Positions 1,722 through 61,095 of a DNA stretch of 64,000 bases are shown here, in pieces. Below the pieces are notes generated by a model, which saw nothing but the letters and a program-made list of their open reading frames with translations, was not told where the DNA came from and ran no database searches. A program made the translations under genes and the position numbers. How positions within the stretch are numbered: position 1 is the first letter of the stretch; each line of letters starts with the position of its first letter. This DNA is from an uncultured Bacilli bacterium (GTDB taxonomy: Bacteria; Bacillota_I; Bacilli_A; RF39; UBA660): the NCBI GenBank assembly GCA_934162195.1, contig CAKPHO010000005.1, forward strand, positions 6,515-70,514, in the 5' to 3' direction.

Positions 1722-2001
1722 TTAATTATTAGTGTAAAGGTACAATTATTTGTGCCTTTCTTTTTTGTGAAATATGGGGGTATATTTAATCATACTATAA
1801 TATTAAATGAAAAAATAAACACAAAGAAGCTAGGCTTTTAAATAACCTAGATTTCTTTGCGTTTTTTTGCTGTGCCTTTATAGGAAGGGAGTTGTTGTAT
1901 AAATACATAAAACACAAAAAATATATATTATGACTGGATGTTTATAATAAATAAAAAAGGGTATAATTAGAATGTATAATAGAGAGAGGAGTAAGAAATA
2001 T
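1722..2001. repeat. Conserved upstream module, copy 1: G5 tract + TTTAATCATACTATAAT + hairpin/T-run + second -10 (GGGTATAATTA) + RBS
   Basis: ~80% nucleotide identity to 26056..26369 and partial identity to 53545..53720; G-run 1776..1780, TATAAT 1796..1801, hairpin ~1820..1860 with T7 at 1863..1869. Confidence 0.7.
1737..1769 (+). terminator. Putative intrinsic terminator after ftsX
   Basis: AAAGGTAC/GTGCCTTT imperfect stem followed by CTTTTTTG. Confidence 0.4.
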
Positions 2002-3715: not shown

Positions 3716-6037
3716 ATGGAGGTGATCTTTTTGATAAAAACAAACTTGCCAGTTATTTTGTTAAGAGGTCTTATATTGCTTCCAAATAACGAAATTAGAT
3801 TAGAATTTGATAATGATTTAAGCAAAAATATAATTGATGTGTCGGAATTGTTTCATGATAATATGTTACTAGTTGTAAGTTCTTTAAATCCTCTTGAAGA
3901 AATACCTACGGAAAAAGATTTACCTAGTATAGGTGTTGTTTCTAAAATAGTAAATAAGATTGAACTTCCAAATGGCAAAACACGTGTTATTATAAAAGGT
4001 ATTAATAGAGCTTATGTAAATGAATATTTAAATTTAAAACATCCTAGTGAAGTTTTAGAATCTATTATAACTAATATTGATGATAAAGAGATAGATTCTA
4101 AAATGGAAAAAATTATGATAAATAAGATAAAAAGAGAACTTGAAATATATATTAAGAAAGTTTCTTATACTAGTAATAGTATTCTTTCTCTAGTTCCTAA
4201 TATAAGTAGTTTATCAAAATTAACTGATATAGTTGTTCCTAATATTTTAATTGACAACAATCGCTTGCTTGTTTATTTAAATGAATCTGATCCTATGAAA
4301 AGAGGGGAGATGATTTTAGAAGATATATATTCTGAAAAAGAATCTTTTGAAATAGAAAAGCAAATCGATTTAAAAGTTAAGAAAAATATGGAAGACAGTC
4401 AAAAAGAATATCTATTACGTGAAAAGTTAAAGTTAATTAAAGAAGAACTGGGTGATGTTAGTTCCAAAGACGATGAAGTAGAATCTATTAGAAAAAAAAT
4501 AACAAAATTAAAAGCTAATGATAAAGTAAAAGAAAAATTAAATAGTGAATTAAAAAAATATGAATCTTTAAGTCAAGTTTCCCCAGAAGTAGGTATTACA
4601 AAAAATTATATTGATTGGTTATTAGAATTACCTTGGGGTGAGTATACAGCGGATAACTCTGATTTAGACAAAGTGTTAGAATCATTGAATAGAAGTCATT
4701 TTGGGTTAGAAAAAGTAAAGAATAGAATTATAGAATATCTTGCAGTCAAGATTAACGCAGATATGTTAAAAAGTCCAATTATATGTTTAGTTGGTCCCCC
4801 AGGAGTTGGTAAGACAACTTTAGCCCGTAGTATTGCAGAGAGTATAAATCGTAAATTTGTAAAAATTAGTGTTGGTGGGGTTAATGATGAAGCTGAAATA
4901 AAGGGACATCGTAGGACTTATCTTGGAGCAATGCCAGGAAAGATTATTCAAGCTATGAAAAAAGCAAAATCAAATAATCCCGTATTTCTAATTGATGAAA
5001 TAGATAAAATGACTAACAATATAAAAGGAGATCCAGCTAGCGCTTTACTTGAAGTGTTGGATCCAGAACAAAATGAATATTTTGTTGATAATTTTATTGA
5101 AGAAGAGTATGATTTATCAAAGGTTATGTTTATAACTACCGCTAATTCTTTAGATTCGATACCTGGACCACTAAGAGATAGATTAGAAATTATTGAGCTT
5201 AATAGTTATACTGAATATGAGAAAATAGATATAGCTAAGAAACATTTAATTCCTAGTTTGTTGGATAGTCACAACGCTAAAGATATAAAGATTTTAGATA
5301 GTTCTGTATTAGAAATAATTAGATATTATACTATGGAAGCAGGAGTTAGAAATCTTGAACGTAAATTAGAAGAAGTAATCAGAAAGATTATTACAGATAG
5401 GTTAAAAAATAAAAAAGAAGATGTGGTTATTGTTGATGATGTTTCTAAGTATCTTGGTAATAGAAAATACAGTTTTGGAAAACTAGAAAAGAATGAAGTA
5501 GGAGTAGTAAATGGTCTTGCTTATACACCTTTTGGTGGGGATATTATTAAAATAGAAGTAAATTATTATAAAGGACATGGTAATTTAATTTTAACTGGTT
5601 CTTTAGGTGATGTTATTAAAGAGAGTGCTCAAATAGCGCTTAGTTATGTAAGATCAAACGCTAGTACTTTTGGTATAGATAGTGAAAAATTTATTAAAAA
5701 TGATATACATATTCATATTCCTGATGGTTCTGTTCCTAAAGATGGGCCAAGTGCTGGAATAGCTATTACAACGGCAATTATTTCTTCTTTATCAAATCGT
5801 ATAGTAGATTCAAGTTTAGCTTATACTGGAGAAATAACTTTACGAGGTAATATACTTGCAATAGGTGGACTAAAAGAAAAAAGTATTGGAGCTTTGAGAA
5901 GCGGAATTAAAACGATTTATATACCAGAAGATAATACTAAAGATTTAGAAGAAATTCCTAATGAAATAAAAGAAAGAATAAATTATGTAAGTTTTAATAA
6001 TTATATGGAATTGTTTAAAAATTTAATTAAGAGGTAA
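3716..6037 (+). CDS. lon: ATP-dependent Lon protease
   Basis: N-domain LPVILLRG; Walker A GPPGVGKTT; proteolytic-domain serine motif PKDGPSAGIA. The annotated ATG at 3716 overlaps a GGAGGTGA RBS, so the true start may be TTG at 3731. Confidence 0.9.
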   Translation: MEVIFLIKTNLPVILLRGLILLPNNEIRLEFDNDLSKNIIDVSELFHDNMLLVVSSLNPLEEIPTEKDLPSIGVVSKIVNKIELPNGKTRVIIKGINRAYVNEYLNLKHPSEVLESIITNIDDKEIDSKMEKIMINKIKRELEIYIKKVSYTSNSILSLVPNISSLSKLTDIVVPNILIDNNRLLVYLNESDPMKRGEMILEDIYSEKESFEIEKQIDLKVKKNMEDSQKEYLLREKLKLIKEELGDVSSKDDEVESIRKKITKLKANDKVKEKLNSELKKYESLSQVSPEVGITKNYIDWLLELPWGEYTADNSDLDKVLESLNRSHFGLEKVKNRIIEYLAVKINADMLKSPIICLVGPPGVGKTTLARSIAESINRKFVKISVGGVNDEAEIKGHRRTYLGAMPGKIIQAMKKAKSNNPVFLIDEIDKMTNNIKGDPASALLEVLDPEQNEYFVDNFIEEEYDLSKVMFITTANSLDSIPGPLRDRLEIIELNSYTEYEKIDIAKKHLIPSLLDSHNAKDIKILDSSVLEIIRYYTMEAGVRNLERKLEEVIRKIITDRLKNKKEDVVIVDDVSKYLGNRKYSFGKLEKNEVGVVNGLAYTPFGGDIIKIEVNYYKGHGNLILTGSLGDVIKESAQIALSYVRSNASTFGIDSEKFIKNDIHIHIPDGSVPKDGPSAGIAITTAIISSLSNRIVDSSLAYTGEITLRGNILAIGGLKEKSIGALRSGIKTIYIPEDNTKDLEEIPNEIKERINYVSFNNYMELFKNLIKR

Positions 6038-6039
6038 AT

Positions 6040-6693
6040 ATGGAAAAATATTATAATAAAAAGTTATTACAAGCTATTTGCTTTGCGGATGATGTAAGAA
6101 TATATTTAGATAAAAATGTATTAACCCCCGCCTTTTTAGAGATGGTTGATCATTTTTTAGCAGATTGTAATTTGGGTGGATTTGTTAGTGAAAAAATGAG
6201 GAAAAATTTGATAGAATTAGCTGATTATCTTAGGTATCATGGACAATCAGATTTAGCAAATGATTTTATTAGATTAACTAATGTGGCAGAAGTGCGTTAC
6301 TTTTGTTGGCATGAATTTTTGTATAAAGAATTTGAAAAACGAAGAACTTCATTTAAAGACAAATATGATATTTTTGATGCCGGTAGTATGAAAGTATTAT
6401 TTACATCATTAGAGATGGATTATTTAGTTTTGCAATCGTTATTGTGTGATGATGAGACTTTTCTAAATGACTTTGTTCCGGGACTAATACTAGATGAATT
6501 TTATTTTATTAGTTGCAAAAGAATTATTGAAGAAGTTCCTCAGTTATTCGAAGATGAGAAAACACGTGAAAGAATAATTGCCATTCATATGTGTAATAAG
6601 AAAATGCAAAAAGAAATAGATGCAGATCAAAAAAGTGATTATAGATCAATAATAAAAACAGGAAAGAAATTAGTAAAAAAAGTGATTAAGTAA
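6040..6693 (+). CDS. Hypothetical protein
   Basis: ORF with RBS AAGAGGT; start overlaps lon stop; no recognisable motifs. Confidence 0.5.
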   Translation: MEKYYNKKLLQAICFADDVRIYLDKNVLTPAFLEMVDHFLADCNLGGFVSEKMRKNLIELADYLRYHGQSDLANDFIRLTNVAEVRYFCWHEFLYKEFEKRRTSFKDKYDIFDAGSMKVLFTSLEMDYLVLQSLLCDDETFLNDFVPGLILDEFYFISCKRIIEEVPQLFEDEKTRERIIAIHMCNKKMQKEIDADQKSDYRSIIKTGKKLVKKVIK

Positions 6694-8610: not shown

Positions 8611-10248
8611 ATGAAGAATAATAAGGGTTTTGCAATAAGTAGTGTTGTTTATGCAATGCTAATCCTTTTTTTAGGACTTATCTTATTAATTTTAGGAAAT
8701 TTAGCTAGCAGAAAAGCTATGTTCGATAAAGAAAAAAATGAGATACTTATGAGATTTAATAATTACGGATCTAGTAAAAAATTTGAAAATGGTGAAGTGG
8801 TATACTTTAATGTGACGTCAGGAGAATTATGTTCGTCATCAGAATATACAGAAACCCAAAGTAATACAGGGGTAAAAGAAGGGTGTATGAAGTTTTATGC
8901 TTTCAATGATGATGGAAAAAATAAAGTAAATTTAATATTAGACCATAATACCACACAATATGCGGCATGGAATTCAAGTGGAAGTAATTCAAGTGGTCCA
9001 AAAGATTTGTTAGACCAATTAAAAGCAGATACAAGATTATGGAAAGGAACAGAACCCCCATCAAACTATACGATGGATCAAACAATACAGAAAAGTAATG
9101 CAAATTATAAAATTAATTATAGTACATATAAAGCAAGATTAATAACGGCTCAAGAAATAGCTAAAATAACTGGTTATAAAGAATGGGATGAAAAAAGTAG
9201 TACTAATGTATATTATTTTGATACCAAAACATCATCACCAAGTCCTACCTGCAAAAGTGGAAACACAACTGGATGCAAATATGGATGGTTATATGACAGA
9301 ACATACACAAGTTGTATAGATTATGGATGCTTGAATAATTCAAATGTATATATGATTGGTTATTGGACCGCATCATCATATAGTAATTCATCTAGTAGTG
9401 CATGGTATGTAAATTATGGTGGCTTTGTGGTTAGTGGTGGTGTTAGTACAACAAATTATTTTGGTGTTCGTCCGGTTATAGAAGTATTAAAATCAAAATT
9501 AGTAAAAACATATGCCAATGGAGAAGTAGTATATTTTAATGTAGATAATGGAACAAAATGTACATCCAGTGAAGCAGTAAGTACAACAGGAACAAAGAGT
9601 GGATGTATGAAATTCTATGCCTTTAATGATGTTGGAAAAGATACAGTAAATTTAATCTTAGATCATAATACAACAGCAACAGTAGCATGGAATAATACAT
9701 ATAAAAATGATAGTGGTAGCATAGCCAATGCTAAAGGTCCAAAAGAATTATTAGACAAATTAAAAAGTGATACATCATCATGGAAAGGAACAATAACGCC
9801 AGCAAATTATACAATGGATCAATCAAATCAACCAAGCAATGCAAAATATACAATAGATTATAGTAGTTATAAAGCAAGATTAATAACAGCACATGAAATA
9901 GCTCAAATAACAGGAAATACGACATGGGATGAAAAGACTGCAAATAATATTTATTATTTAGACAGCAAAACAACTACTGCAAGTGCCACATGTAAAAGTG
10001 GGAATACAAGTGGATGTAGTTATGGTTGGCTATATGATAGAACATCTACTTCATGTACAACATATGGATGTTTAAATAATTCAGATAAAGAAACACACGG
10101 TTATTGGACTGCCTCTTCTCGTGCCGGCTACTATAGCCTCGCTTGGCGCGTGGGCAACGATGCTTACGTGAGCAGCGACGGCGTTTTCAATTCAAGCAGC
10201 GAAGGTGTGCGCCCAGTTATAACTGTCTTGAAATCTAGCCTTATATAA
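8611..10248 (+). CDS. Pilin-like membrane-anchored protein with two tandem DUF1566/Lcl-like modules
   Basis: N-terminus KGFAISSVVYAML is a hydrophobic helix, prepilin-like but without Glu+5. Two ~270-aa internal repeats (NGEVVYFNV...GCMKFYAFND...YKARLITA.EIA.ITG...GVRPVI.VLKS). Shares its C-terminal motif with the paralogs 18290, 26370 and 53768. Confidence 0.75.
   Translation: MKNNKGFAISSVVYAMLILFLGLILLILGNLASRKAMFDKEKNEILMRFNNYGSSKKFENGEVVYFNVTSGELCSSSEYTETQSNTGVKEGCMKFYAFNDDGKNKVNLILDHNTTQYAAWNSSGSNSSGPKDLLDQLKADTRLWKGTEPPSNYTMDQTIQKSNANYKINYSTYKARLITAQEIAKITGYKEWDEKSSTNVYYFDTKTSSPSPTCKSGNTTGCKYGWLYDRTYTSCIDYGCLNNSNVYMIGYWTASSYSNSSSSAWYVNYGGFVVSGGVSTTNYFGVRPVIEVLKSKLVKTYANGEVVYFNVDNGTKCTSSEAVSTTGTKSGCMKFYAFNDVGKDTVNLILDHNTTATVAWNNTYKNDSGSIANAKGPKELLDKLKSDTSSWKGTITPANYTMDQSNQPSNAKYTIDYSSYKARLITAHEIAQITGNTTWDEKTANNIYYLDSKTTTASATCKSGNTSGCSYGWLYDRTSTSCTTYGCLNNSDKETHGYWTASSRAGYYSLAWRVGNDAYVSSDGVFNSSSEGVRPVITVLKSSLI
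10126..10248 (+). other. GC-shifted 3' segment, candidate DGR variable repeat (VR)
   Basis: Codon usage switches abruptly to GCC/GGC/CGC/AGC/GAC/AAC in a 28% GC gene. Aligns codon-for-codon with 54640..54772 of the paralog (the only template-like partner in this window), differing mainly at codon positions 1 and 2 with C retained at position 3. Confidence 0.5.
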
Positions 10249-10502: not shown

Positions 10503-10535
10503 GTGAGTTTTTTATATTTTAATAGGAGGAATATT

Positions 10536-13076
10536 ATGTTAGAAAGTAAATATAATCATTTAAGCGTTGAAGATGGAAAATATGAAAATTGGAAAGAAAA
10601 GGGATATTTTGAGTCTGGTGATTTAAGTAAGAAACCATACTGTATTGTAATTCCCCCACCAAATGTAACAGGTAAATTACATTTAGGACATGCTTGGGAT
10701 ACAACCCTTCAAGATATTATTATTCGTTATAAAAGAATGGATGGATATGATGCTCTTTGGGTTCCTGGTATGGACCATGCTGGAATAGCAACACAAGCTA
10801 AAGTTGATAAAAAATTAAAAGAGCAAGGCATAAAACCACGTGAAATGGATCGTGAAGAGTGGTTAGAACATGCATGGGCTTGGAAGAGACAATACGCAGA
10901 TAATATTCATGCACAATGGGCTAAAATGGGATTAAGTTTAGATTATACCAAAGAAAGATTTACTTTAGATGAAGGACTTAGTAATGCTGTTAAGAATGTT
11001 TTTGTAACTTTATATAATGAAGGATTAATATATAGAGGAGAAAGAATTATTAACTGGGATCCTGAAGCTATGACAGCACTTTCCAATGAAGAAGTAATAT
11101 ATAAAGATGTAGAAGGAGCATTCTATCACATTAAGTATTTTATAGAAGGAACTAATGACTATCTAGAAGTTGCAACAACTCGTCCTGAAACATTATTTGG
11201 AGATACTGGTGTTGCTGTTAATCCTAGTGATGATCGTTATAAACATTTAATAGGAAAAAAAGTCGTTCTTCCTATTGTTAATAAGTTAATACCTATAGTA
11301 GGAGATGAACATGCTGATCCAGAATTTGGTACTGGTGTTGTTAAAATAACCCCAGCTCACGATCCTAATGACTTTGAGGTAGGAAATAGACATGATCTTG
11401 AAAGAATTATTGTTATGAATCCTAATGGTACAATGAATAAGAATGCTGGTATTTACGAAGGAATGGATCGCTTTGCTTGTCGTGAGAAACTTGTAAATGA
11501 TTTAAAAGCACAAGACTTACTTATATCTATTGAACCAATTGTTCATAGTGTAGGTCATAGTGAAAGAACAGATGTAATGGTTGAACCATATCTTTCTAAA
11601 CAATGGTTTGTTAAGATGAGACCACTTGCAGATAGAGTATTAGAAAATCAAAAGAATAAAGACACAAAGGTTAATTTTGTTCCAGAAAGATTTGAAAAAA
11701 CTATGAATCACTGGATGGAGATTACTTATGACTGGTGTATTTCTCGTCAACTTTGGTGGGGACACAGGATACCTGCTTGGTACAAAGGTGAAGAAGTGTA
11801 TGTTGGAATAAATCCACCTGAAGGTGATGGTTGGATACAAGATTCGGATGTGTTAGATACTTGGTTTTCTAGTGCTTTATGGCCATTTTCAACACTTGGT
11901 TGGCCAGAAAAAACAGATTTGTTAGCTCGTTATTATCCTAATAATGTTTTAGTAACAGGATATGATATAATTCCTTTCTGGGTAAACAGAATGACTTTCC
12001 AAGGACTTCATTTTACAGAACAAAGACCATTTAAAGATTGTTTAATCCATGGACTTATTCGTGATAAACAAGGTCGTAAAATGAGTAAATCATTAGGTAA
12101 CGGTGTAGATCCTATGGATGTTATAGAAAAATATGGCTGTGATTCATTGAGATTTTTCTTAACTACATCAACTGCGCCAGGTATGGATTTGAGATATGAT
12201 GAAGAAAAAGTGGCATCAACTTGGAATTTTATCAATAAACTTTGGAATGCATCACGTTTTGTTTTAATGAATATTGAAGACTTAACTAAAGATACTTATA
12301 CATTAGATAATTTATCAATTAGTGATAAATGGATTTTAACAAAACTAGAAAATCTAATTAAAACGGTTAGAAAACATATGGATAATTATGAATTTAATGT
12401 TGTTGGTACAGAACTTTATAGTTTCATCTGGAATGATTTCTGTGATTGGTATATAGAACTTGCTAAAGGAAATTTGAATAATACAACAAAGAGTGTACTT
12501 CTTACTGTACTAACAGATGTATTAAAGATGTTGCATCCATTTATGCCATATGTAACAGAAGAAATATATTTAATGTTACCAGTACATGATAAATCAATTA
12601 TGATAAGTTCTTATCCAGTATATAATAAAGATTTAGTATTTGAAGATTCTAAAGAATTAGATAATATTATTGATTTTATTGTTAAAGTAAGAACTGCTAA
12701 ATTAGAACATAAAATACCAAAAAATTCAAAAGTATATTTTGAAGGTAATTATAAAGATTTAATTTTAAAATCTCTTCGTGTTGCTTCTGAATGTTTAATA
12801 GATAATAGTGATATGGATGGAGTGGAAGTAATTAGTTCAAATAAAAACTATAGAATTAAGTATATGTTTGATACTTCTATTGATAAAGAAAAAGAGTTAG
12901 AATCACTTCAAAAAGAAAAAGAAAACTTAGAAAATTCTATTGCTAGAAGAAAGAAACTTTTAAGTAATGAAAACTATGTAAGTAAAGCTCCAGAAAATAT
13001 TGTTAATAAAGAAAGAGAAGATTTACTAAAAGAGGAGAATGAATTAAAATTAATTTTAGAAAAAATGGGCAACTAA
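10536..13076 (+). CDS. valS: Valyl-tRNA synthetase
   Basis: HIGH motif [15 protein letters not shown]; KMSKS motif KMSKSLGN; C-terminal coiled coil; start at the RBS-supported (TAGGAGG) ATG at 10536. Confidence 0.92.
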
Positions 13077-13139: not shown

Positions 13140-13529
13140 ATGAATGAACTAAATAATACTGCAAGTGCGAATGGAACATATAATAATATTCCAACATCTG
13201 TTACGTCTAATACCTCAGTGGTAAATATGATAGAAGGACTTACACTAACTAAAGAAGCAGACAAACAAAATTGGAGTAGTGGAGATTTAACATACACAAT
13301 AACTTTAAAAAATGAAACAGATAAGGTATATTCAAATTTGGTCATTAAAGATGTTATTAATACAACTTTAGTAGAGTTTGTAAAAGGTAGTGTGACTATT
13401 AACGGAAATAATGCATTAGAATCACAATATTCTTACGACGAAGGAACTAGTACATTAACAATCAATTTAAATGATGCAGGACCCTCATCAACAAATACTC
13501 TCACGTTTCGCGTTACAAAAAAAAGTTAA
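13140..13529 (+). CDS. DUF11 (conserved repeat domain) protein, short, possibly a remnant
   Basis: LTLTKEADK...GDLTYTITLKNETDKVYSNLVIKDVI...FVKGSVTINGNN matches the DUF11/TIGR01451 repeat-domain pattern; RBS GGGAGGTGA; no signal peptide, only 129 aa. Confidence 0.45.
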   Translation: MNELNNTASANGTYNNIPTSVTSNTSVVNMIEGLTLTKEADKQNWSSGDLTYTITLKNETDKVYSNLVIKDVINTTLVEFVKGSVTINGNNALESQYSYDEGTSTLTINLNDAGPSSTNTLTFRVTKKS

Positions 13530-13745: not shown

Positions 13746-13778
13746 TTGACTATTAATTTAATTTTGTGCTATTATAAG
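13746..13778 (+). promoter_or_regulatory. Promoter of the small pilin gene (TTGACT-18-TGcTATTAT extended -10)
   Basis: TTGACT 13746..13751; TGCTATTAT 13767..13775. Confidence 0.55.
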
Positions 13779-13808
13779 AATGTAAATAAGGTAAGGTGGT
13801 GAGAATAA

Positions 13809-14168
13809 ATGAAAATGAATAAGAAAGGTTTTACTTTAATTGAATTATTAGCAGTTATCGTAGTATTAGCTATTATCGCTTTAATCGCTACTCCAATTGT
13901 TATGAGTACAATTAATAAAGCTCAAGAAGGTGCAAATAAGAGATCTGTAGAAGGTTACATGAAAGCTTATGAAGCAGCATACTATGAATATATGCTTGAA
14001 AATGGTGGTGCTGAACCAGCAACTAAATTAACTTCAGGTATTGATTATAATGGTGCTACAGTTGAATGTGCAACAATTACAGTAACAGCTGATAAAAAAT
14101 TCAGTGCTACTTGTACAGTAAATGGTAAGACTTACTCATATGCAAATGGGAAAGCTGATAATAAATAA
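13809..14168 (+). CDS. Type IV major-pilin-like protein (prepilin with C-terminal disulfide loop)
   Basis: NKKGFTLIELLAVIVVLAIIALIATPIV class III signal; 119 aa; two Cys near the C-terminus (CATITVTADKKFSATC) typical of the pilin D-region; own promoter and terminator. Confidence 0.8.
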   Translation: MKMNKKGFTLIELLAVIVVLAIIALIATPIVMSTINKAQEGANKRSVEGYMKAYEAAYYEYMLENGGAEPATKLTSGIDYNGATVECATITVTADKKFSATCTVNGKTYSYANGKADNK

Positions 14169-14183
14169 TATTATCTAGTATTA

Positions 14184-14212
14184 AAAAGATAGTTAATTGC
14201 TATCTTTTTTTG
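14184..14212 (+). terminator. Intrinsic terminator after the pilin gene (AAGATAG-TTAATTG-CTATCTT + T7)
   Basis: Perfect 7-bp stem plus a T-run. Confidence 0.7.
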
Positions 14213-14249
14213 TGCTTTTATGCTATACTTTAAAAGGTAGGATGATGGT

Positions 14250-15575
14250 ATGAGTAAAATAATAAGCAAATTAAATTTTGTGTTAATTATCTTTGTGTTA
14301 GTATTAAATCCATTATGGTTGTTAACATGTGCCAACCTAAAATCATTTGGTTTAACAATACCTTTTTATTATTATCAAATATTATATTTTCTAATTCCGG
14401 TAGAAGTAATTATTTATGCATATAAAATTATAAAAAAAGAAGTTAAATTTAATTATTATGATATGATTGTATTTATATTGTTAATATTACTTGGGATTGT
14501 TACTAGTAATTCGATTGATGTATCCACATCAATTTGGGGAGCTTATAAAAGAAATGAAGGTCTTTTGACGATGATAAGTTATTACTTGTTGTTTTTAAAT
14601 TGCAGAAGTTTAAATGAGAAACAAATACGTTTTGGTGTAAAAGTTCTATTTGAAATAGGAATTGTGCAATTTGTTTATTGTTTATTGCAAGTTTTTTTGA
14701 GATTCCCAGGATTAGAATTATTTTCTTTAAATGATGTAAATTATATGGCAATGGGTTTTGTAGGAAATCCTAATTTTTTAGGAAGTTATTGTATAATGTT
14801 ATTAGGATTAGCTCTTATGTTATATTTTATTAAAAGTGAAAGAAAATATTTTTGGTTAAGCATTATATTTTTTATTAATTTAATTTTGTCTCAATCCACT
14901 GGTCCTTTCTTTTCTTTTATAATATTATTTATCTTTATGATTATCTTTATGAAAATTAAAAACATAATTAATTGGGAAAAAGTAGGTATTGTATTTGTCA
15001 GCTTTGTATTAACCTTTATTGTTGTCAGTAATGGTGTAGAATTATATTGTAAAAAGGTATTTAATGATAAGATTGTTTCTAGTTATACAATAAAAGGTGA
15101 TATGCTAAATACTTTAAATTTATTTGGATTCTCTAAAGAAAATGGTGATAAAGATATAACAATTGAAGATTATGGTTCTGGTAGAATTACTATTTGGAAA
15201 AATACTTTAAAAATAGTACCTAAGTATTTTTGGTTAGGTTCTGGCATAGATACATTTGGATATGTTTACCCTGATAATAATAAGGGACTATATTATGATA
15301 AAGCACATAATGAATATCTTCAAATTCTTATTACAGAAGGAATTTTTTCATTAATATTATACCTTAGTTTATTATTAACCTTGTTTGTTGATGGCATAAA
15401 AAGTAATAATAAACTTGTTTGGATATTAATGATGGCTTTTGTAGGGTATGCTTTGCAAGCATTTTTAAATATAAGAGTTAATACAGTCGCACCAACATTT
15501 TATATAATAACGGGAATGCTTGCTGGACTTATTAGTCAAGAAAAAGTAAAAGAAAAAATTAAGAAAGTTGCTTAA
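14250..15575 (+). CDS. O-antigen ligase / Wzy_C-family polytopic membrane protein (GT-C-like; PglL/WaaL-type)
   Basis: ~10 TM helices followed by a large periplasmic-type loop carrying YYDKAHNEYLQILITEGIFS (Wzy_C-like H-N-E-Y-L motif), then C-terminal TM helices. Confidence 0.6.
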   Translation: MSKIISKLNFVLIIFVLVLNPLWLLTCANLKSFGLTIPFYYYQILYFLIPVEVIIYAYKIIKKEVKFNYYDMIVFILLILLGIVTSNSIDVSTSIWGAYKRNEGLLTMISYYLLFLNCRSLNEKQIRFGVKVLFEIGIVQFVYCLLQVFLRFPGLELFSLNDVNYMAMGFVGNPNFLGSYCIMLLGLALMLYFIKSERKYFWLSIIFFINLILSQSTGPFFSFIILFIFMIIFMKIKNIINWEKVGIVFVSFVLTFIVVSNGVELYCKKVFNDKIVSSYTIKGDMLNTLNLFGFSKENGDKDITIEDYGSGRITIWKNTLKIVPKYFWLGSGIDTFGYVYPDNNKGLYYDKAHNEYLQILITEGIFSLILYLSLLLTLFVDGIKSNNKLVWILMMAFVGYALQAFLNIRVNTVAPTFYIITGMLAGLISQEKVKEKIKKVA

Positions 15576-15629
15576 ACTTTCTTTTTTTTTAATCTTGTTA
15601 TATAATATACGTACAGATGGAGGTTGTTT

Positions 15630-16574
15630 ATGGAAAAAATTTCAATTATTGTACCTTGTTATAATGAAGAAGAAGCAATGCCTATATTTTATGAAGAAAT
15701 ATGTAAAGTTGCTAAAAAAATGAAAAAAGTAGATTTTGAGTTCATTTTTGTAAATGATGGTTCTAAAGATCATACTTTAGATGTTGCTCGTGAATTACAC
15801 AAAAAAGATGAAAGAGTAAGATATGTTTCATTTTCTCGTAATTTTGGAAAAGAAGCTGGAATGTATGCTGGATTAGAAGCCGCTCGTGGAGATTATGTTG
15901 CTATTATGGATGTTGACTTACAAGATCCACCTGCTTTAATAGAAGAAATGTATGAAACATTAAAAAATGAAGATTATGATTGTGTAGCATCTCGCCGTGT
16001 TTCAAGAAAAGGTGAGCCACCAATAAGAAGTTTTTTTGCTAGATGTTATTATAAGTTAATTAATAAAATATCTAAAACAGAAATAGTTGATGGTGCACGT
16101 GATTTTAGATTAATGACTCGTCAAATGGTTGATTCTATTCTAGAATTAAAAGAATACAATCGTTATTCTAAAGGAATATTTAGTTGGGTAGGATATAAAA
16201 CTAAGTGGTTAGAATATGAAAATATCGAAAGAGTAGCAGGAACTACGAAATGGTCTTTCTGGAAATTATTTTTATATTCTTTAGAAAGTATAGTAGCGTT
16301 TTCTACGGTACCATTATCAATAGCTGCTGTAATGGGATTGTTATTTTGTTTAATTGCATTTATTTTAATTATTGTTATTATTGTAAAAACATTAACTGTT
16401 GGAGATCCAGTAGCGGGATGGCCTAGTATGGTATGTATTATTTTCTTTGTCAGTGGTATTCAATTATTCTGCTTGGGAATTATCGGTCAATATCTAGCTA
16501 AAACATATTTAGAAGTTAAGAATAGACCAATTTATATAGTTAAAGAAACTGAGGAATCTGAATGCAAAAAATAG
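15630..16574 (+). CDS. GT2 polyprenyl-phosphate glycosyltransferase (GtrB/CsbB-like)
   Basis: SIIVPCYNEEE...NDGSKDHT...DVDLQDPP are GT-A motifs; two C-terminal TM helices; RBS GGAGG then ATG at 15630. Confidence 0.8.
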   Translation: MEKISIIVPCYNEEEAMPIFYEEICKVAKKMKKVDFEFIFVNDGSKDHTLDVARELHKKDERVRYVSFSRNFGKEAGMYAGLEAARGDYVAIMDVDLQDPPALIEEMYETLKNEDYDCVASRRVSRKGEPPIRSFFARCYYKLINKISKTEIVDGARDFRLMTRQMVDSILELKEYNRYSKGIFSWVGYKTKWLEYENIERVAGTTKWSFWKLFLYSLESIVAFSTVPLSIAAVMGLLFCLIAFILIIVIIVKTLTVGDPVAGWPSMVCIIFFVSGIQLFCLGIIGQYLAKTYLEVKNRPIYIVKETEESECKK

Positions 16575-16984
16575 TAGATTTATTTAATAAATATAAAGAA
16601 GTAATTATGTATTTAATATTTGGAGTTTTAACAACTGTAGTAAGTTTAGTTACTTACTATGTTTTAACACTTACGATATTAAATCCTAATAGTGCTTTGC
16701 AATTACAATTAGCAAATATTATATCTTGGATTGTAAGTGTAGCGTTTGCTTATGTTACTAATCGTAAATTTGTATTTGAAAGCAAGAGTGAAAATATTGT
16801 TAAAGAATTAAGTTCATTTGTTGGTGGTAGAGTATTAACTTTACTAATGGATATGGCTATTATGTTTATATTTGTGACATTATTACATTTTAATGACAAA
16901 ATATTTAAAATAGTTTCACAAGTTGTAGTAATAGTAGCAAACTATGTAATAAGCAAATTATTTGTCTTTAAAGAAAACAAATAG
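16562..16984 (+). CDS. GtrA-family small membrane protein (lipid-linked sugar flippase)
   Basis: 140 aa, four TM helices, NRKFVFES motif; overlaps the GtrB-like stop. Confidence 0.7.
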   Translation: MQKIVDLFNKYKEVIMYLIFGVLTTVVSLVTYYVLTLTILNPNSALQLQLANIISWIVSVAFAYVTNRKFVFESKSENIVKELSSFVGGRVLTLLMDMAIMFIFVTLLHFNDKIFKIVSQVVVIVANYVISKLFVFKENK

Positions 16985-17037
16985 TTTGCTTTTTTTGTTT
17001 TGCAATGTTATAATAGGCGCTATTGAGGGGGAGTTTT

Positions 17038-18165
17038 ATGAAAATAGATCCATATGAATACTATTTTTTGGAACCTAGAATAGATGGATTAAAAGATTAT
17101 TATAAAAAAAATCACGAACTAACAATTATCGGATTAAATGATTCTCAAGGTGTTAATACAACTAATTTGTTAAAAAAAGGATTACTTGAATTTATTTCTG
17201 ATAAATTAAAAGATGAAGAGACTAAAACAACTGTAATTGATGCATTTTCATTAATGTTTAATAAGACAGAACATATTAATTATTTATTAAGATCTAATCC
17301 AAATTTAGAAGAAATAAAAGATTTACAAGTTTATGGCATGGTTTCTGCATTAGAAAAAGCTATGAGTGATTTTCATTTACCTAGAGATTTAGGTAAAATA
17401 GGTTATGTAAGTAGAAAGTTGCATAAAACTTGTAAGGAAGATAAAGATATAAGATTAACAGATACCTTAAGAGGTTCTAAAGAACCTATAGTTATTTATT
17501 CAAGTGGTGCTAATGACATTATGAGAGAAGGATGGAATAATCCATTTAATATTGGTAAAGATTATAAAAAACAAAATGCGGCTTATAAATACACTTTAGA
17601 TAAATTAAGTGATGTATCAACAGTAAAAAGAATTATTGATAAAGTAGATGAAAATTTTAATAATATTTTATCTTTAAATGATAAAGCTGATGTTTTTGCA
17701 CTAGGATTATATATTCCAAAATCAATGAGAAAAGAAGAAATGAAAGTCTTTAATAGTACTATTAAAATATATAATGAGTTTTTAAAAGAGCTATGTAAAA
17801 AATATAATATTGAATATGTTGACACTGAAAGTATCGGTAATGAAAATAATAAAAATAAATTAAATTTTCATACTACGGTAGAAAGATATAATGCTTTGGC
17901 AAACAAAATAATAGAAATTTTATATGGCAGAAAATTATATAAACATGAAGACTTTGTTCTTCCAGAACTTACTGGTTTTAAATCTGGTAAAAATGGTTTG
18001 TATGAATTTTTAGTTGATTTAAAAAGAGATTTTAAAAAAGTTGTAAAAGAAGGTGTTCTTGCTATGGATACTGATGAAGTGACATATGAAGTTGCTGTTC
18101 AAAAAAGAAGAGAAATAGAAAGACAAATTGGTGTTGTTGAAAAAACATTGATGAAGAGAATGTAA
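17038..18165 (+). CDS. Hypothetical protein, possibly SGNH/GDSL-hydrolase-like
   Basis: GLNDSQG (block I-like), SSGANDI (GxND block III), NFHTTVERYNALANKI (block V-like DxxH region); RBS GAGGGGGA; ATG at 17038. Confidence 0.4.
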   Translation: MKIDPYEYYFLEPRIDGLKDYYKKNHELTIIGLNDSQGVNTTNLLKKGLLEFISDKLKDEETKTTVIDAFSLMFNKTEHINYLLRSNPNLEEIKDLQVYGMVSALEKAMSDFHLPRDLGKIGYVSRKLHKTCKEDKDIRLTDTLRGSKEPIVIYSSGANDIMREGWNNPFNIGKDYKKQNAAYKYTLDKLSDVSTVKRIIDKVDENFNNILSLNDKADVFALGLYIPKSMRKEEMKVFNSTIKIYNEFLKELCKKYNIEYVDTESIGNENNKNKLNFHTTVERYNALANKIIEILYGRKLYKHEDFVLPELTGFKSGKNGLYEFLVDLKRDFKKVVKEGVLAMDTDEVTYEVAVQKRREIERQIGVVEKTLMKRM

Positions 18166-18289: not shown

Positions 18290-19336
18290 ATGAAGAAAAA
18301 AGGCTTTACTTTAATAGAATTACTAGCGGTAATAGTAGTATTAGCTATCATTGCTCTAATAGCAACACCAATAGTAATGAGTGCAATTGAAAAATCAAAG
18401 AAAGGAGCAGCTGAGAGAAGTGCGGATAGCTACATCAAACAAGTAGAAACAGCAGTAGCAACAGAACGACTAGATGGAAATGAAGTCCAAAATGGAACAT
18501 ACGAAATAGATGGTGAAGGGAATTTAACAGGAAAAGGATTGCCAAACAATAAATTAGTTATTGACATGAAAGGAAATAAACCAATATCTGGAACAATAAC
18601 AATAAAAGATGGACAAGTAACAAATGATTCTAAGATGACAATTGGTGATTATGATGTTAAATATAATGAAGATAAAAAGAAATATGAAGCAACAAAAAGT
18701 GGTGGGACAAATCCAGATACACCATCAGTAAAAACATTATGTACTAAAAAAGAAGGAGTAGATTTAAATAATTTAGCTTCTGGAAATGAATTTACTTGTG
18801 AATTAGGAGATAATGATGCAAAAACATTTTATGTCTTAGAAACAAATGAGGATAATGTATCATTAATAATGAATGCTAATATTGATTCAAATGGAAAAGC
18901 TATAACGCCAGATAACATTCCAGATGATAAAGGATTAGTTGCATGGTCGGAAGACGGAAGCAATCATAAGGATGATGATGAATCAGCACAAGCAGTAACA
19001 GCAAAGGCATACTTATCATCAAGTACAACAAATTGGACTAAACTAAATCAATCACAAATTAAATTACCAACGGCAAGTCAGATTGCAGCAACGGCAGGGA
19101 CAACATTTGATGGTGTTAGTATGATAATGGGTTTACCAGCATGGATATATGATAACATGGATGGTACAGCAAATGCTGTATCTGGAATACCTGCTTATTG
19201 GACATCAACACCTTATAAATCTAATGATACTAATGCTTGGGGTGGTGGTGCTTACTCCAATCTAAGTAATTATAGTAGCGCAAGTACTTACGGTATACGT
19301 CCAGTAATAACTGTCTTAAAATCTGATCTTTCGTAA
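18290..19336 (+). CDS. Modular pilin-like protein: prepilin N-terminus + DUF1566/Lcl-like C-terminal module
   Basis: MKKKGFTLIELLAVIVVLAIIALIATPIVM; the first ~45 codons are nearly identical at nucleotide level to 26370 and 53768; C-terminal motif YWTSTPY...AWGGGAY...YGIRPVITVLKSDLS. Confidence 0.8.
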   Translation: MKKKGFTLIELLAVIVVLAIIALIATPIVMSAIEKSKKGAAERSADSYIKQVETAVATERLDGNEVQNGTYEIDGEGNLTGKGLPNNKLVIDMKGNKPISGTITIKDGQVTNDSKMTIGDYDVKYNEDKKKYEATKSGGTNPDTPSVKTLCTKKEGVDLNNLASGNEFTCELGDNDAKTFYVLETNEDNVSLIMNANIDSNGKAITPDNIPDDKGLVAWSEDGSNHKDDDESAQAVTAKAYLSSSTTNWTKLNQSQIKLPTASQIAATAGTTFDGVSMIMGLPAWIYDNMDGTANAVSGIPAYWTSTPYKSNDTNAWGGGAYSNLSNYSSASTYGIRPVITVLKSDLS

Positions 19337-19455: not shown

Positions 19456-21258
19456 ATGAAGCAGGAAAATATAAGAAATTTTTCTATTATTGCTCATATC
19501 GATCATGGCAAGAGTACTTTAGCTGATCGTATTTTGGAACTTACTGGGGCAATAGATGAAAGGGAAAAACAAGAACAATTATTAGATAATATGGAACTTG
19601 AAAGAGAACGAGGTATTACAATTAAGTTAAATGCGGTAAGACTTAAATATCATTATAAAGATGAAGATTATATGTTAAACTTAATTGATACTCCAGGTCA
19701 TGTTGATTTTACGTATGAAGTATCACGTAGTTTGGCAGCATGTGAAGGAGCTATTCTTGTTGTTGATGCAGCACAAGGGATTGAAGCTCAGACTTTAGCA
19801 AATCTTTATCTAGCTTTGGATAATGATTTAACAATTATTCCTGTTATAAATAAAATAGATTTACCTAATGCTGATCCTGAAAAAGTAAAGAAAGAACTAA
19901 TGGATACATTAGGATTTAATGAAGATGAAATAATTTTAACGAGTGCAAAAAATGGAATTGGTATTAAAGAATTGGTAGAAACAATTATAGAAAGAGTACC
20001 TAGTCCTAAAGGTAATAAAAAGAATAAGTTACAGGCTTTAATATTTGACAGTATATATGATCCTTATCGTGGTATTATCACATTATCTAGAGTGATGGAT
20101 GGTAGTGTTAAAGTTGGGGATAAAATAAAAATGATGGCAACTGGTGCTACTTATGATATTACAGAGATTTTGGTTCATAACCCTAAAGAAGTTAAAGTTG
20201 ATAAATTGGGTCCTGGAGAAGTAGGATGTATATGTGCTAGTATTAAAAGTATTAATGATGTAAAAGTGGGGGATACCATTACTAATGATGATGATCCTGC
20301 AAGTAAACCTTTACCGGGGTATAAACCTATGAAACCAATGGTATTTTGTGGACTTTATCCAATTGAGTCGTCACGTTATCCAGAACTTCGTGAAGCGTTA
20401 GAAAAACTAAAATTGAATGATGCTTCTTTAGAGTTCGAACCTGAAACATCAAAAGCTTTAGGTTTTGGATTTAGATGTGGGTTCCTAGGACTTTTACATA
20501 TGGATATTATTGAAGAGAGAATTGAAAGAGAATTTAAAATAGATTTAATTGCAACTTCTCCTTCTGTTGTTTACGAAGTAACACTAACTGATCATTCTAC
20601 CGTAATTATTGATAGTCCAGTTAAAATGCCTGATAAACAAAAAATATTGGATATTAAAGAACCGTATATCAGAACTAATATCTTTGTGCCTAGTGAATAT
20701 ATAGGTCCAATAATGGAATTATGTCAAGATAAGCGTGGTAATTATATTTCTATGGAATATTTAGACCCTACACGTGTTAATATTCATTATGAAATTCCAC
20801 TATCGGAAATTGTATATGATTTTTTTGATAAGTTAAAATCTACAACTAAGGGTTATGCTTCTTTTGACTATGAATTGATTGGGTATAAAAGTAGTGATTT
20901 GGTTAAAATGGATATTTTACTTAATGGTGAAGTTGTCGATGCTTTAAGTGTTATTGTTCATAAGGATTTTGCATATAAGCGTGGTAGAAGTTTTGTTGAG
21001 CAATTGCGAAAATTAATTCCTCGCCAACAGTTTGAGGTTCCAATTCAAGCATGCCTTGGAAATAAAGCTATTGCTCGTGAAACTGTTAAAGCAGTACGTA
21101 AGGATGTTTTAGCTAAATGTTATGGTGGAGATGTTTCACGTAAAAGAAAGTTACTTGAAAAACAAAAGGAAGGTAAAAAAAGAATGAAAATGGTAGGTAG
21201 TGTTGAAATACCACAAGAAGCATTCTTGGCTGTTTTAAGCATGGAGGATGAAAAATGA
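19456..21258 (+). CDS. lepA: Elongation factor 4 (LepA)
   Basis: G-domain motifs [22 protein letters not shown]; LepA-specific C-terminal domain; ~600 aa. Confidence 0.92.
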
Positions 21259-21674: not shown

Positions 21675-21695
21675 TCATTTCTGAAGATTATTTTC
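21667..21695. terminator. Bidirectional terminator hairpin (GAAAATAATC-9nt-GATTATTTTC) containing both convergent stop codons
   Basis: Perfect 10-bp inverted repeat; the TAA (21672..21674) of the + gene and the TGA (21675..21677, minus strand) of the fic-like gene lie inside the stem. Confidence 0.6.
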
Positions 21696-22298
21696 TTTTT
21701 CTTTTTGAACTATAGCTTTCATAAATTCCATTTCTAACATGCTAGGATATATGTATCTTTGTACTGTTCCCATTAAAAGATTTTTACTATCCATTTTAGT
21801 ATAATCAATATCTAGTGGACCACAAGGAAGGTTTTTGCTTTTCTCTAAAACAAATTCTCTCATAAATATTCTTATTGTTCTTCCATTTCCTTCTCTAAAG
21901 GGATGAACCATAATTAAATCGTGATAAAAAGGAGCAATATAAAAGGCTAATTCTGGAATTGAAGAAATATTTCCAATCTTATTTAAATCATTAAGAATTT
22001 CATCTAAAGATTTAGTGATATTTTGTGGATTGCAGAAACTAGTCCTATCTTTTCCTAAAGTGCATAATCTTATTTCTCCTGCAAAAGGATATATTTTTCC
22101 AAAAACAAATTTATGAATTTTTTTTAAATCTTCAATATCAAAATTTTTACATATTGGTTTTAAATATAGCGTAGCCATTGTTTTTCTAGTAATAGCTCTT
22201 TCTGTTTCTTTTAATTTTTCTAAGCTTGTAATATTTAAATTATTTTTTAAAACATCTGTTCCTTCAATTAAATAATCATCCCAATGATCTATTTCCAT
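21675..22298 (-). CDS. Fic/Doc-family protein (AMPylase-type)
   Basis: Canonical Fic motif HPFREGNGRTIR (HxFx[D/E]GNGRxxR); start taken at MEIDHW, supported by an AGGATGG RBS. Confidence 0.8.
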   Translation of the reverse strand: MEIDHWDDYLIEGTDVLKNNLNITSLEKLKETERAITRKTMATLYLKPICKNFDIEDLKKIHKFVFGKIYPFAGEIRLCTLGKDRTSFCNPQNITKSLDEILNDLNKIGNISSIPELAFYIAPFYHDLIMVHPFREGNGRTIRIFMREFVLEKSKNLPCGPLDIDYTKMDSKNLLMGTVQRYIYPSMLEMEFMKAIVQKEKENNLQK

Positions 22299-22443
22299 TA
22301 TAACCATCCTTAATTTTAGTCTTTTTTTTGTTATTGTCTTCGGTTTTTGTTTTAATGTCAACACTTACTTCTTCAAAGCTAATATTTGCATCTGCCTGTC
22401 TAAGCGCTTCTTTAAGTTTTTTAAGCCTTGCAATCTTATCCAT
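22276..22443 (-). CDS. Small Lys-rich ORF (55 aa) overlapping the fic start; possible partner or antitoxin-like protein
   Basis: ATG preceded by AAGGAAG; MDKIARLKKLKEALRQADANISFEEV...; overlaps the first 23 nt of fic; not in the ORF track (<60 aa). Confidence 0.3.
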   Translation of the reverse strand: MDKIARLKKLKEALRQADANISFEEVSVDIKTKTEDNNKKKTKIKDGYNGNRSLG

Positions 22444-39230: not shown

Positions 39231-39281
39231 AATAACACCTCGTGATGTTTGTCATAAAATATCATAGGAGGTGTTTTTTTG

Positions 39282-54776: not shown

Positions 54777-54810
54777 AAATGGTAAGTCGATGACTTGCCA
54801 TTTTTAGTTT
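54777..54810. terminator. Bidirectional terminator/hairpin between the pilin-like gene and tetR (AAATGGTAAGTC-GAT-GACTTGCCATTT + T-run)
   Basis: 11-12 bp stem with one G.U pair, immediately 3' of the candidate VR; the T-run overlaps the tetR stop. Confidence 0.6.
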
Positions 54811-61081: not shown

Positions 61082-61095
61082 GGATAAGGTGTTTG

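Follow-up and report, generated by a model that had tools for sequence, protein, structure and literature searches.

A WaaL-fold Wzy_C protein encoded beside a type IV pilin gene as a candidate pilin glycosyltransferase in uncultured gut Bacilli

The stretch of DNA analysed here, hereafter the window, comprises 64,000 nucleotides (nt) of contig CAKPHO010000005.1 from an uncultured Bacilli bacterium, a monoderm host with sporulation genes. The GC content of the window is 27% with a strong GC skew, and housekeeping genes make up its bulk (ftsE/X, lon, valS, lepA, a radical-SAM enzyme, mur ligases, mraY and leuS). In the interval from valS (10503-13076) to lepA (19456-21258), where every gene lies on the + strand, four neighbouring genes drew our attention. 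These encode a small type IV prepilin of 119 amino acids (aa) (13809-14168), a Wzy_C membrane protein of 441 aa with 12 predicted transmembrane helices (14250-15575), a GT2 polyprenyl-phosphate glycosyltransferase of the GtrB/CsbB/PgfS type with a C-terminal transmembrane hairpin (15630-16574, 314 aa from ATG, with a TTG at 15624 as alternative start), and a small membrane protein of the GtrA family, a putative flippase for sugar linked to undecaprenyl phosphate (Und-P) (16562-16984). An original prediction, made from the letters of the window, had called these four open reading frames (ORFs) at the same positions, and both the calls and the identities hold in the ORF list and in Pfam and NCBIfam searches. 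Considered together with its relatives, this pilin-linked Wzy_C gene set points to a sugar-decoration system for pilins of a kind not yet described in Gram-positives.

The small pilin starts with the leader MKMNKKG|FTLIELLAVIVVLAIIALIATPIV, a class III signal peptide with Gly at position -1, a hydrophobic residue at +1, Glu at +5 and a hydrophobic α1 segment. Its prepilin motif is KKG|FTLIELL (full leader MKMNKKG|FTLIELL), with cleavage predicted at G|F. The protein scores 35.2 bits against Pfam N_methyl (cutoff 21.2) and 34.8 bits against TIGR02532, and Cys87 and Cys102 form a candidate disulfide loop near the C-terminus, in agreement with the pilin with a C-terminal Cys-Cys loop that had been proposed. 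The pilins compared have in common α1, the two cysteines and a tail of the form Y-x-Y-x-[ND]-G-K-A, which is conserved in the relatives' pilins and appears in the window pilin as the ending ...NGKADNK. Outside α1 and the cysteines, Tyr111 is the only residue conserved in at least 80% of the sequences. Assignment of the small pilin as ComGC was rejected on a score of 35 bits against a cutoff of 75 bits and on the presence of the disulfide loop. No PilB, PilC, PilD or PilM gene is found within the 64-kb window.

The Wzy_C protein matches Pfam PF04932 with 63.9 bits (cutoff 31.7) and no other Pfam domain. In an alignment of 40 relatives sharing 35-82% identity (A1), all 40 members match PF04932 only at E ≤ 1, and at this threshold PglL_A (PF15864) and Wzy_C_2 (PF11846) are absent from all 40. 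An AlphaFold2 model calculated on A1 reached a pLDDT of 90.4 and a pTM of 0.91. When this model was searched with Foldseek, the ligase WaaL of Cupriavidus metallidurans (CmWaaL, 7TPG) was the top and only significant match (E 1.4e-5, TM 0.53/0.57), followed by the SEDS proteins FtsW and RodA. The classical GT-C enzymes ArnT, PglB and EmbB were not significant, and neither Pfam nor Foldseek gave a match to YfhO or PMT_2. On this model, the enzyme is predicted to have the WaaL fold (GT-C_B in some classifications) and not the classical GT-C fold, so that the earlier description as a GT-C-like membrane protein has to be given up. Its placement in the PglL/PilO class stands as far as the Wzy_C domain and the WaaL fold are concerned, but PglL_A and Wzy_C_2 are missing and the pilin has no terminal Ser/Thr. 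At the sequence level, a search of the PDB with the single Wzy_C sequence returned nothing; WaaL was reached by profiles only, the A1 profile having 7TPG as its sole match with about 13% identity to CmWaaL.

Two invariant motifs, GSGR312ITIW and DKAH353NEY, align with WaaL residues R265 and H313, respectively. Together with R101, R312 and H353 are invariant in the window's Wzy_C clade (identity of at least 38%, 11 distinct lineages) and conserved in essentially every relative examined. In E. coli WaaL, R215, R288 and H338 are important, and the equivalent residues R224, R298 and H349 of PglL are conserved (PMC3643930); the E. coli residues correspond to R191, R265 and H313 of CmWaaL. It has been proposed that the Arg residues of the WaaL site coordinate the pyrophosphate of the undecaprenyl pyrophosphate (Und-PP) donor, while the His serves as catalytic base (PMC12800693). 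Judging from the invariant R101, R312 and H353 and from the alignment to R265/H313, the predicted enzyme looks active.

Of these three WaaL/PglL key residues, the window enzyme keeps two (R312 and H353). The third, CmWaaL R191, is the Arg of a T-R-S/G-A-W motif and was aligned by the profile of A2, a Wzy_C family encoded in Clostridial pilus operons. The equivalent of R191 is window position 217, within the clade motif S-T-G-P-F, both when the A1 and A2 profiles are aligned and when the sequences are aligned jointly with MAFFT. This position is occupied by Thr in 31, Ser in 2 and Ile in 1 of 34 distinct clade members, and by Arg in none, whereas the A2 family, which has no GT2/GtrA neighbour, carries Arg or Lys in 25 of 25 members. 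The replacement of Arg by Thr217 in the window enzyme fits altered phosphate binding. WaaL 7TPG is the only significant structural and the only PDB sequence match, with R312/H353 aligned to R265/H313, but there are clear differences: a monoderm has no lipid A-core acceptor, Thr217 stands for R191, and the genomic context is a pilin instead of lipopolysaccharide genes.

The subfamily of this enzyme is large, with 711 clusters at 50% identity and E ≤ 1e-30. The Wzy_C proteins in two of the related loci, which are numbered with the prefix L below, carry C-terminal MORN repeats (Pfam E 2e-11; L064, 5836-7407, and L079, 628-2202, both in pilus operons), and several relatives in the representative library are fused into much longer proteins (P0363, 821 aa; P0378, 868 aa; P0413, 923 aa).

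The GT2 protein scores 126 bits against PF00535 and matches full-length GtrB sll0501 (5EKP, E 2e-76) and ArnC (E 1e-34) in the PDB. Its best NCBIfam model is streptococcal PgfS, with 330 bits below a cutoff of 500. The GtrA protein scores 83 bits against PF04138. These matches uphold the proposed pair of a GtrB/CsbB-like GT2 and a GtrA-family flippase. The only sugar genes near Wzy_C in the window are these two, which are predicted to make Und-P-sugar, and domain searches of the 64-kb window, partly by eye, revealed no apparent phosphoglycosyltransferase, Wzx or other glycan-assembly gene. An orthologous pair occurs in locus L107 (7001-12942), where a GT2 with 83% identity and GtrA are followed by an 828-aa YfhO and then by a convergent LtaS-type sulfatase. 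This gene order looks like the textbook layout for glycosylation of lipoteichoic acid (LTA) and shows, as far as gene content can, that one Und-P-sugar module pairs with different terminal transferases. Since the place behind GtrA is held by YfhO in L107, it looks as if transferases specific to different acceptors can be exchanged at this point. The glycosylation of teichoic acid, the alternative named in the original prediction, therefore stays viable for GT2 and GtrA, but for Wzy_C the comparative data favour the link to the pilin.

Folding of the intergenic regions changed the transcriptional picture. Two AT-rich hairpins, both overlooked by a terminator scan that demands at least 3 GC pairs, were revealed in this way. 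The first, with a U-run, follows the pilin gene (about 14183-14212, + strand; -14.3 kcal/mol, z -3.7, matched by none of 200 shuffles) and ends 38 nt before the Wzy_C start within a pilin-Wzy_C gap of 81 nt. Its equivalent was found in 8 related loci, and the comparison with the 200 shuffles confirms a terminator-like hairpin where a terminator had been suggested. The second, with a run of nine U, overlaps the Wzy_C stop codon (about 15561-15590, + strand; -13.2 kcal/mol, z -3.2, again without an equal among 200 shuffles) and is conserved in L009, L011, L012 and L019. Between this hairpin and GT2 stands a TATAAT box (about 15600-15607, + strand). Both hairpins and the -10-like boxes before Wzy_C and GT2 recur in relatives whose Wzy_C is 55-78% identical. 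Because the hairpin standard that makes the pilin gene monocistronic applies equally to Wzy_C, the latter would form a unit of its own. The only clearly coupled genes in the window are GT2 and GtrA, which overlap by 13 nt. Thus, the pilin, Wzy_C and GT2-GtrA are probably three adjacent units by these signals, and the three-gene Wzy_C/GT2/GtrA operon originally proposed is doubtful here. Upstream of the pilin, the sigma-70-like promoter candidate TTGACT-18-TG-TATTAT (13746-13775, + strand) that had been reported is present and matches 10 of 12 positions with the TG, but 4.9 kb contain 49 promoter-like matches compared with 38.1 ± 6.6 in shuffles, no enrichment in such AT-rich DNA. Since these sites are no more frequent than chance would give, the match alone is no evidence for a promoter.

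The link between the pilin and Wzy_C is weak within one genome but strong when genomes are compared. In 9 of the 11 clade lineages, an N_methyl pilin of 105-138 aa is encoded 55-180 nt upstream of Wzy_C on the same strand. The pair is kept when its surroundings change: in L014/L015 it is followed by convergent VTC/CotH genes and valS is missing, in L016 the order is valS-pilin-Wzy_C-lepA, and in L017/L018 it is rpsT-gpr-pilin-der-Wzy_C-spoVIF. The clade was ordered by average-linkage clustering (UPGMA) and not by a robust phylogeny, and no monophyly of the pilin-linked forms is claimed. Beyond the clade, Wzy_C relatives with 26-33% identity are encoded inside type IV pilus operons. In hhalign, the profile of this family (A2) matches that of A1 from end to end (probability 100%, E 9e-71), and the two share their signature motifs. 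Examples are L030 (pilC-pilin-pilin-pilD-Wzy_C-pilM-pilN-pilO-minor pilins), L064/L079 (pilB-pilT-pilC-pilin-Wzy_C(+MORN)-pilin-pilD-pilMNO), likewise L078 and L082, and the cultured Clostridium magnum (LWAE01000001; pilD-Wzy_C-pilB-pilC-pilin-pilM-pilN). The Wzy_C relatives of L029, L045, L051, L063 and L076 likewise have pilus genes beside them.

Many other relatives with 33% identity or less sit in polysaccharide loci without a pilin. Accordingly, the Wzy_C family includes ordinary Wzy-type enzymes, and the linkage to pilins is a trait of particular subfamilies. A contig scan with the single Wzy_C sequence gave seven loci, five of which were distant Wzy proteins of this kind. On a further reading, the window protein would itself be a Wzy-type enzyme that polymerises or ligates a capsule or exopolysaccharide, or else a non-enzymatic membrane protein associated with the pilus. 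The Pfam Wzy_C family also holds polymerases, and distant relatives (35% identity or less; L003, L004 and L057) lie in polysaccharide loci with sugar transferases. However, no Wzx, chain-length regulator, initiating transferase or sugar-nucleotide gene flanks the window Wzy_C or any member of the clade; the window gene is surrounded by valS, a DUF11 protein, the pilin, GT2/GtrA, a GDSL-like gene, a pilin and lepA. A clustering with the Wzy polymerases of capsule loci, the outcome that would have spoken against the earlier proposal, is thus not seen for this clade. As the invariant Arg/His residues argue for catalysis, a non-enzymatic role finds no favour either, and we regard both explanations as highly improbable.

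GT2 and GtrA join the pilin and Wzy_C in at least three gene orders. The order pilin/Wzy_C/GT2-GtrA is found in the window, L011, L012 and L105/L106, and the order valS-Wzy_C/pilin/GT2-GtrA in L028, where Wzy_C is 31% and GT2 80% identical. In L103/L104, which were found with GT2 and not Wzy_C as the anchor, the order is pilin/GT2-GtrA-Wzy_C within the context gap-p139-pilin-GT2-GtrA-Wzy_C-lepA. Here, GtrA overlaps GT2 by 4 nt, and the Wzy_C gene (40% identity to the window protein) overlaps GtrA by 11 nt, its GTG start codon being preceded by the Shine-Dalgarno sequence AAGGA, with hairpins only after the pilin and after Wzy_C. The pilin and Wzy_C were adjacent in two of three GT2-anchored lookups, the third being L107 with YfhO. 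The GT2 homologue search was saturated with matches of at least 83% identity, and these lookups cover close GT2 contexts. Just upstream of the L103 pilin, a 139-aa protein (5995-6414) was observed with one N-terminal transmembrane helix, a pilin-like C-terminal Cys loop and a 'LYSYKN' tail; it has no prepilin cleavage motif and only a weak BLAST match to the window pilin (E 6e-4).

Comparison of closely related strains adds a second type of evidence. A closely related contig, CAKOTU010000004 from an uncultured Bacilli metagenome-assembled genome of a Hadza gut sample, encodes a 98% identical Wzy_C protein, and its nucleotide identity to the window is 0.92-0.99 over most of the locus and 0.52-0.86 over the GDSL-like gene and the second pilin. 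In other near-identical genomes (valS 97%, lepA 96-97% and GT2 99% aa identity), identity is only 77-78% for Wzy_C and 58-79% for the pilin. When the window is compared with L009, the nucleotide identity of about 0.95 in valS drops to 0.76-0.83 between mid-pilin (14000) and the stop of Wzy_C (15400), recovers to 0.95 in GT2, and is no more than 0.47-0.69 over the second pilin. The synonymous rate (dS) and the ratio of nonsynonymous to synonymous rates (dN/dS) are 0.73 and 0.17 for Wzy_C, 0.25 and 0.05 for valS, 0.33 and 0.01 for GT2, and 0.54 and 0.43 for the C-terminal half of the pilin, with a nonsynonymous rate (dN) of 0.23 in the latter. The C-terminal half of the pilin and Wzy_C behave as one divergent, hypervariable cassette with a sharp boundary at GT2, which resembles, by analogy, the pilin/accessory-gene alleles of Pseudomonas. 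L002 is a mosaic with a breakpoint inside Wzy_C.

Combined, these observations are best accounted for by a pilin-directed WaaL-fold transferase that is probably fed Und-P-sugar by GT2 and GtrA, a reading to which we assign a probability of roughly 0.4. The case as a whole consists of comparative genomics and structure prediction, from which the gene identities, the modelled WaaL fold, the conserved Arg/His motifs and the conserved as well as permuted neighbourhoods are read directly. According to this proposal, the small pilin would be exported and processed at G|F. The GtrB-type GT2 would make the Und-P-sugar in the cytoplasm and GtrA would flip it, whereupon the Wzy_C enzyme at the outer face of the membrane would transfer the sugar from the undecaprenyl-linked donor to the variable, surface-exposed C-terminal part of the pilin. 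Wzy_C would thereby fill the role that YfhO/GtrC-type enzymes have in classical three-component systems. The small pilin is a rather plausible acceptor, with better than even odds in our view. Attachment may occur in the Cys87-Cys102 loop, which is rich in Ser/Thr as in PglS/ComP, or in the Y-x-Y-x-NGKA tail, where the conserved Tyr111 is a candidate site. The donor would most likely be a single hexose or N-acetylhexosamine on undecaprenyl monophosphate; jointly with the pilin-directed transfer, such a donor is a tentative assignment that falls somewhat short of an even chance. The more specific proposal that a WaaL-fold enzyme was recruited as the transferase of a GtrB/GtrA system for Und-P-sugar O-glycosylation of a type IV pilin, with the change from Arg to Thr at the R191/R215 position marking the donor switch, is doubtful.

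A considerable number of observations weigh against the favoured reading. With regard to the pilin, the aligned small pilins contain no conserved Ser/Thr acceptor column, and the last residue is Lys in the window and K, E, A or N in the relatives, without a conserved C-terminal Ser/Thr. Because pilin genes are so dense (seven prepilin-type genes in the 64 kb of the window), the adjacency of a pilin and Wzy_C in any single genome is weak evidence. Moreover, the valS-lepA slot is common to much or most of the clade by descent, L023/L024 have Wzy_C without a pilin, and Caloramator E03 has a stand-alone Wzy_C copy. Strict co-variation of the pilin and Wzy_C was not found, as L014 and L015 have identical Wzy_C proteins but pilins of 75% identity. 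With regard to the donor, the pilin, Wzy_C and GT2-GtrA of the window are set apart by hairpins and promoter-like boxes, the slow evolution of GT2 (dN/dS 0.01) is that of a housekeeping gene and contrasts with the variable Wzy_C and pilin, and a gerA operon is inserted between Wzy_C and GT2 in L019/L026. The pilin-Wzy_C pair occurs without adjacent GT2/GtrA in L014-L017, in L025, where soluble GT2 and GT4-like genes lie upstream of the pilin instead, and in every pilus-operon example. The R191-type Arg is also lost in the relatives from the polysaccharide loci L003 and L004, and its loss is therefore not specific to the use of Und-P. Finally, the described partners of GtrB/GtrA-type modules in Gram-positives are all GT-C enzymes of the YfhO/PMT_2 type (PMC8035078, PMC12041528), and the characterised enzymes of the WaaL/Wzy/SEDS fold all use Und-PP-linked donors (PMC12800693, PMC3643930). 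Since the known third components are YfhO/PMT_2/GtrC GT-C proteins and the WaaL fold uses Und-PP, the three-component logic with Wzy_C would be an unprecedented hybrid. In the original claim of such a logic, GT2 and GtrA are as expected, but the third protein has the WaaL fold and is not GT-C.

Several of these points lead to a different donor. Wzy_C may act as a TfpO-like en-bloc O-oligosaccharyltransferase that glycosylates the pilin with an Und-PP-glycan from genes elsewhere, while GT2-GtrA would serve teichoic-acid or cell-wall glycosylation or add a side-branch. We consider this unlikely, although it agrees with the Und-PP donors of all characterised members of the fold and with the alignment of R312/H353 to the Und-PP-binding and catalytic residues of WaaL (PMC12800693, PMC3643930). 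It is also consistent with the pilin-Wzy_C pairs that lack GT2/GtrA, lie in pilus operons or neighbour soluble GT2/GT4-like genes (L025), with the hairpin and promoter box between Wzy_C and GT2, with the far higher conservation of GT2 than of Wzy_C, and with the orthologous GT2-GtrA pair beside YfhO/LtaS in L107. However, it does not explain the overlapping GT2-GtrA-Wzy_C operon of L103/L104 or the occurrence of the four genes together in three orders; genes for assembling an Und-PP-glycan are absent from the neighbourhood of every member of the window's clade, and this clade is without the R191/R215-type Arg that the pilus-operon family retains.

Alternatively, Wzy_C, in place of YfhO, may decorate LTA, wall teichoic acid (WTA) or another secondary wall polymer together with GT2 and GtrA, with the pilin as a bystander. 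The GT2 and GtrA proteins are indeed typical of the CsbB-GtcA type, an 83% identical pair occurs with YfhO and LtaS, pilin genes are frequent in this genome, the valS-lepA slot is shared by descent in most clade members, and the pilin has no conserved Ser/Thr acceptor. In spite of this, we judge a wall polymer to be quite improbable as the target of Wzy_C: homologues with the same motifs lie inside the type IV pilus machinery operons of unrelated Clostridia, the adjacency of the pilin and Wzy_C persists with changed flanks and without GT2/GtrA, and the C-terminal half of the pilin and Wzy_C form a single hypervariable block with a sharp edge at GT2.

The proposed pilin-directed transferase can be compared with known systems. 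To our knowledge, WaaL-type enzymes that O-glycosylate pilins have been described from Gram-negative bacteria only. The enzymes TfpO/PilO (Pseudomonas aeruginosa group I pilins and Acinetobacter) and TfpM (Moraxellaceae) are likewise Wzy_C-only proteins without PglL_A/Wzy_C_2. Their genes lie immediately downstream of, and co-oriented with, the pilin gene, and pilin and enzyme vary as an allele cassette (PMC12645811, PMC9829042). In contrast to the present system, they belong to Gram-negative bacteria, take O-antigen or capsule units from Und-PP, and glycosylate a C-terminal Ser (TfpO) or Ser/Thr (TfpM). Here, the last pilin residue is Lys (in relatives also Glu, Ala or Asn), the host is a monoderm, a GtrB/GtrA pair is linked, and the enzyme has no Arg of the R191/R215 type. 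PglL (Neisseria) and PglS (Acinetobacter baylyi ComP) share the WaaL-related fold with the Wzy_C-motif Arg and His, and pilin-like genes are often adjacent to them (21 of 31, PMC3643930). The Ser modified by PglS is internal and lies in a pilin loop closed by a disulfide, comparable to the Cys87-Cys102 loop. Unlike in PglL/PglS, however, PglL_A and Wzy_C_2 are absent here in 40 of 40 proteins, there is no large C-terminal periplasmic domain, and the donor is possibly Und-P-linked. The window enzyme is set apart from TfpO, TfpM, PglL and PglS by domains and described features, not by phylogenetic placement. Thus, the originally suggested role of the pilin as substrate draws support from the adjacency that survives rearrangement, the homologues in pilus operons and the four genes in at least three orders, but the system lacks defining features of both TfpO/TfpM and PglL/PglS.

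In terms of the donor, TfpW, which acts on P. aeruginosa group IV pilins, is the nearest parallel: it takes arabinofuranose from a polyprenyl monophosphate and not an Und-PP-oligosaccharide. It is also a pilin-adjacent membrane glycosyltransferase with a donor logic similar to the one proposed here, but TfpW is a classical GT-C enzyme whose donor pathway starts from phosphoribosyl pyrophosphate (PRPP), as opposed to a WaaL-fold enzyme with a GtrB-type GT2. The glycosylation of the type IV pilus by TfpW has been reported (Figure 1C, PMC11194591). By analogy, the arrangement in the window may work like pilA-tfpO or comP-pglS, and in its donor logic like pilA-tfpW. The multi-component systems CsbB-GtcA-YfhO (LTA/WTA), GtrB-PgtC2 and PgfS-PgfM1 (Ser/Thr-rich protein regions in streptococci) share the combination of a GtrB-type GT2, a GtrA flippase and a polytopic transferase, and L103 has their canonical three-gene operon layout, of which L107 is the YfhO version. 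Their third component is, however, a YfhO/PMT_2 GT-C enzyme with a DxD loop (PMC8035078, PMC12041528), compared with the Wzy_C/WaaL-fold protein with Arg/His motifs found here, and the presumed acceptor in our case is a type IV pilin.

Further genes around the locus deserve description. Between valS and the small pilin lies a DUF11/isopeptide-domain-like ORF without signal peptide (13140-13529, + strand, 129 aa), which is kept in the closest relatives (L001, L002 and L008-L010), missing from L011 and L012, and varies more than its flanks do (dN/dS 0.21). A GDSL/SGNH-like ORF (17023-18165, + strand) with sub-threshold Pfam scores and no signal peptide separates GtrA from the second pilin. It shows 75% aa identity between near-identical genomes (dN/dS 0.28) and is missing from L012; a role as glycan O-acetyl esterase or transferase is possible.

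The six further prepilin-type genes of the window (1972-3618, 8611-10248, 18290-19336, 26370-27311, 41711-43783 and 53768-54772) stand singly, scattered among housekeeping genes, and encode 'modular' pilins of 313-690 aa, one with DUF285 and leucine-rich repeats. Four of them have a common C-terminal module ending G(V/F)RPVITV, for which DUF6273/Lcl_C matches are sub-threshold only; a 545-aa modular pilin contains two copies of this module and has a pilin-like N-terminus without Glu5. The second pilin of the valS-lepA interval (18290-19336, + strand, 348 aa, upstream of lepA) is the most variable stretch between strains (47-69% nucleotide identity; compare L008 12312-13625 and L009 12050-13258). 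L008 has a DUF285-type pilin in its place and L011 and L012 have none, so this site looks like a swap site for modular pilins.

Elsewhere in the window, 60212-62970 encodes a collagen-like protein (289 aa, with G-P-Q/G-x-y triplet repeats) that resembles exosporium or phage-fibre proteins, and then a 625-aa protein without assigned function. Two tandem Mur-ligase genes (37857-40621; 457 and 459 aa), both with a MurE-like N-terminus as judged by eye from the translations, directly precede mraY. Just two substantial genes of this co-directional window lie on the minus strand, a Fic/DOC-domain gene (21675-22364), found at the same place in several relatives (L008, L009 and L012), and a TetR-like ORF (54804-55367).

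The production of bioconjugate vaccines relies heavily on the Gram-negative WaaL-type enzymes for pilin glycosylation. The literature searched, the coverage of which is incomplete, yielded no account of pilus loci with Wzy_C genes in Gram-positives, of GtrB/GtrA with a Wzy_C protein as partner, or of glycosylated type IV pili in Gram-positive bacteria. The Wzy_C subfamily described here accompanies pilins in uncultured Bacilli that are abundant in the gut, and it occurs inside the pilus operons of cultured Clostridia. Given its 711 clusters and these ties to pilins, a widespread and overlooked modification of Gram-positive pili is therefore suggested, and the hypervariability at the strain level hints at immune or phage pressure. 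If the favoured reading is true, this would be the first Gram-positive pilin glycosylation system. Should the donor in addition be an Und-P-monosaccharide from GtrB/GtrA, the enzyme would be the first Und-P-dependent member of the WaaL/Wzy/SEDS fold, breaking the rule of pyrophosphate-linked donors for this fold, and would represent a new class of terminal transferase in multi-component glycosylation systems.

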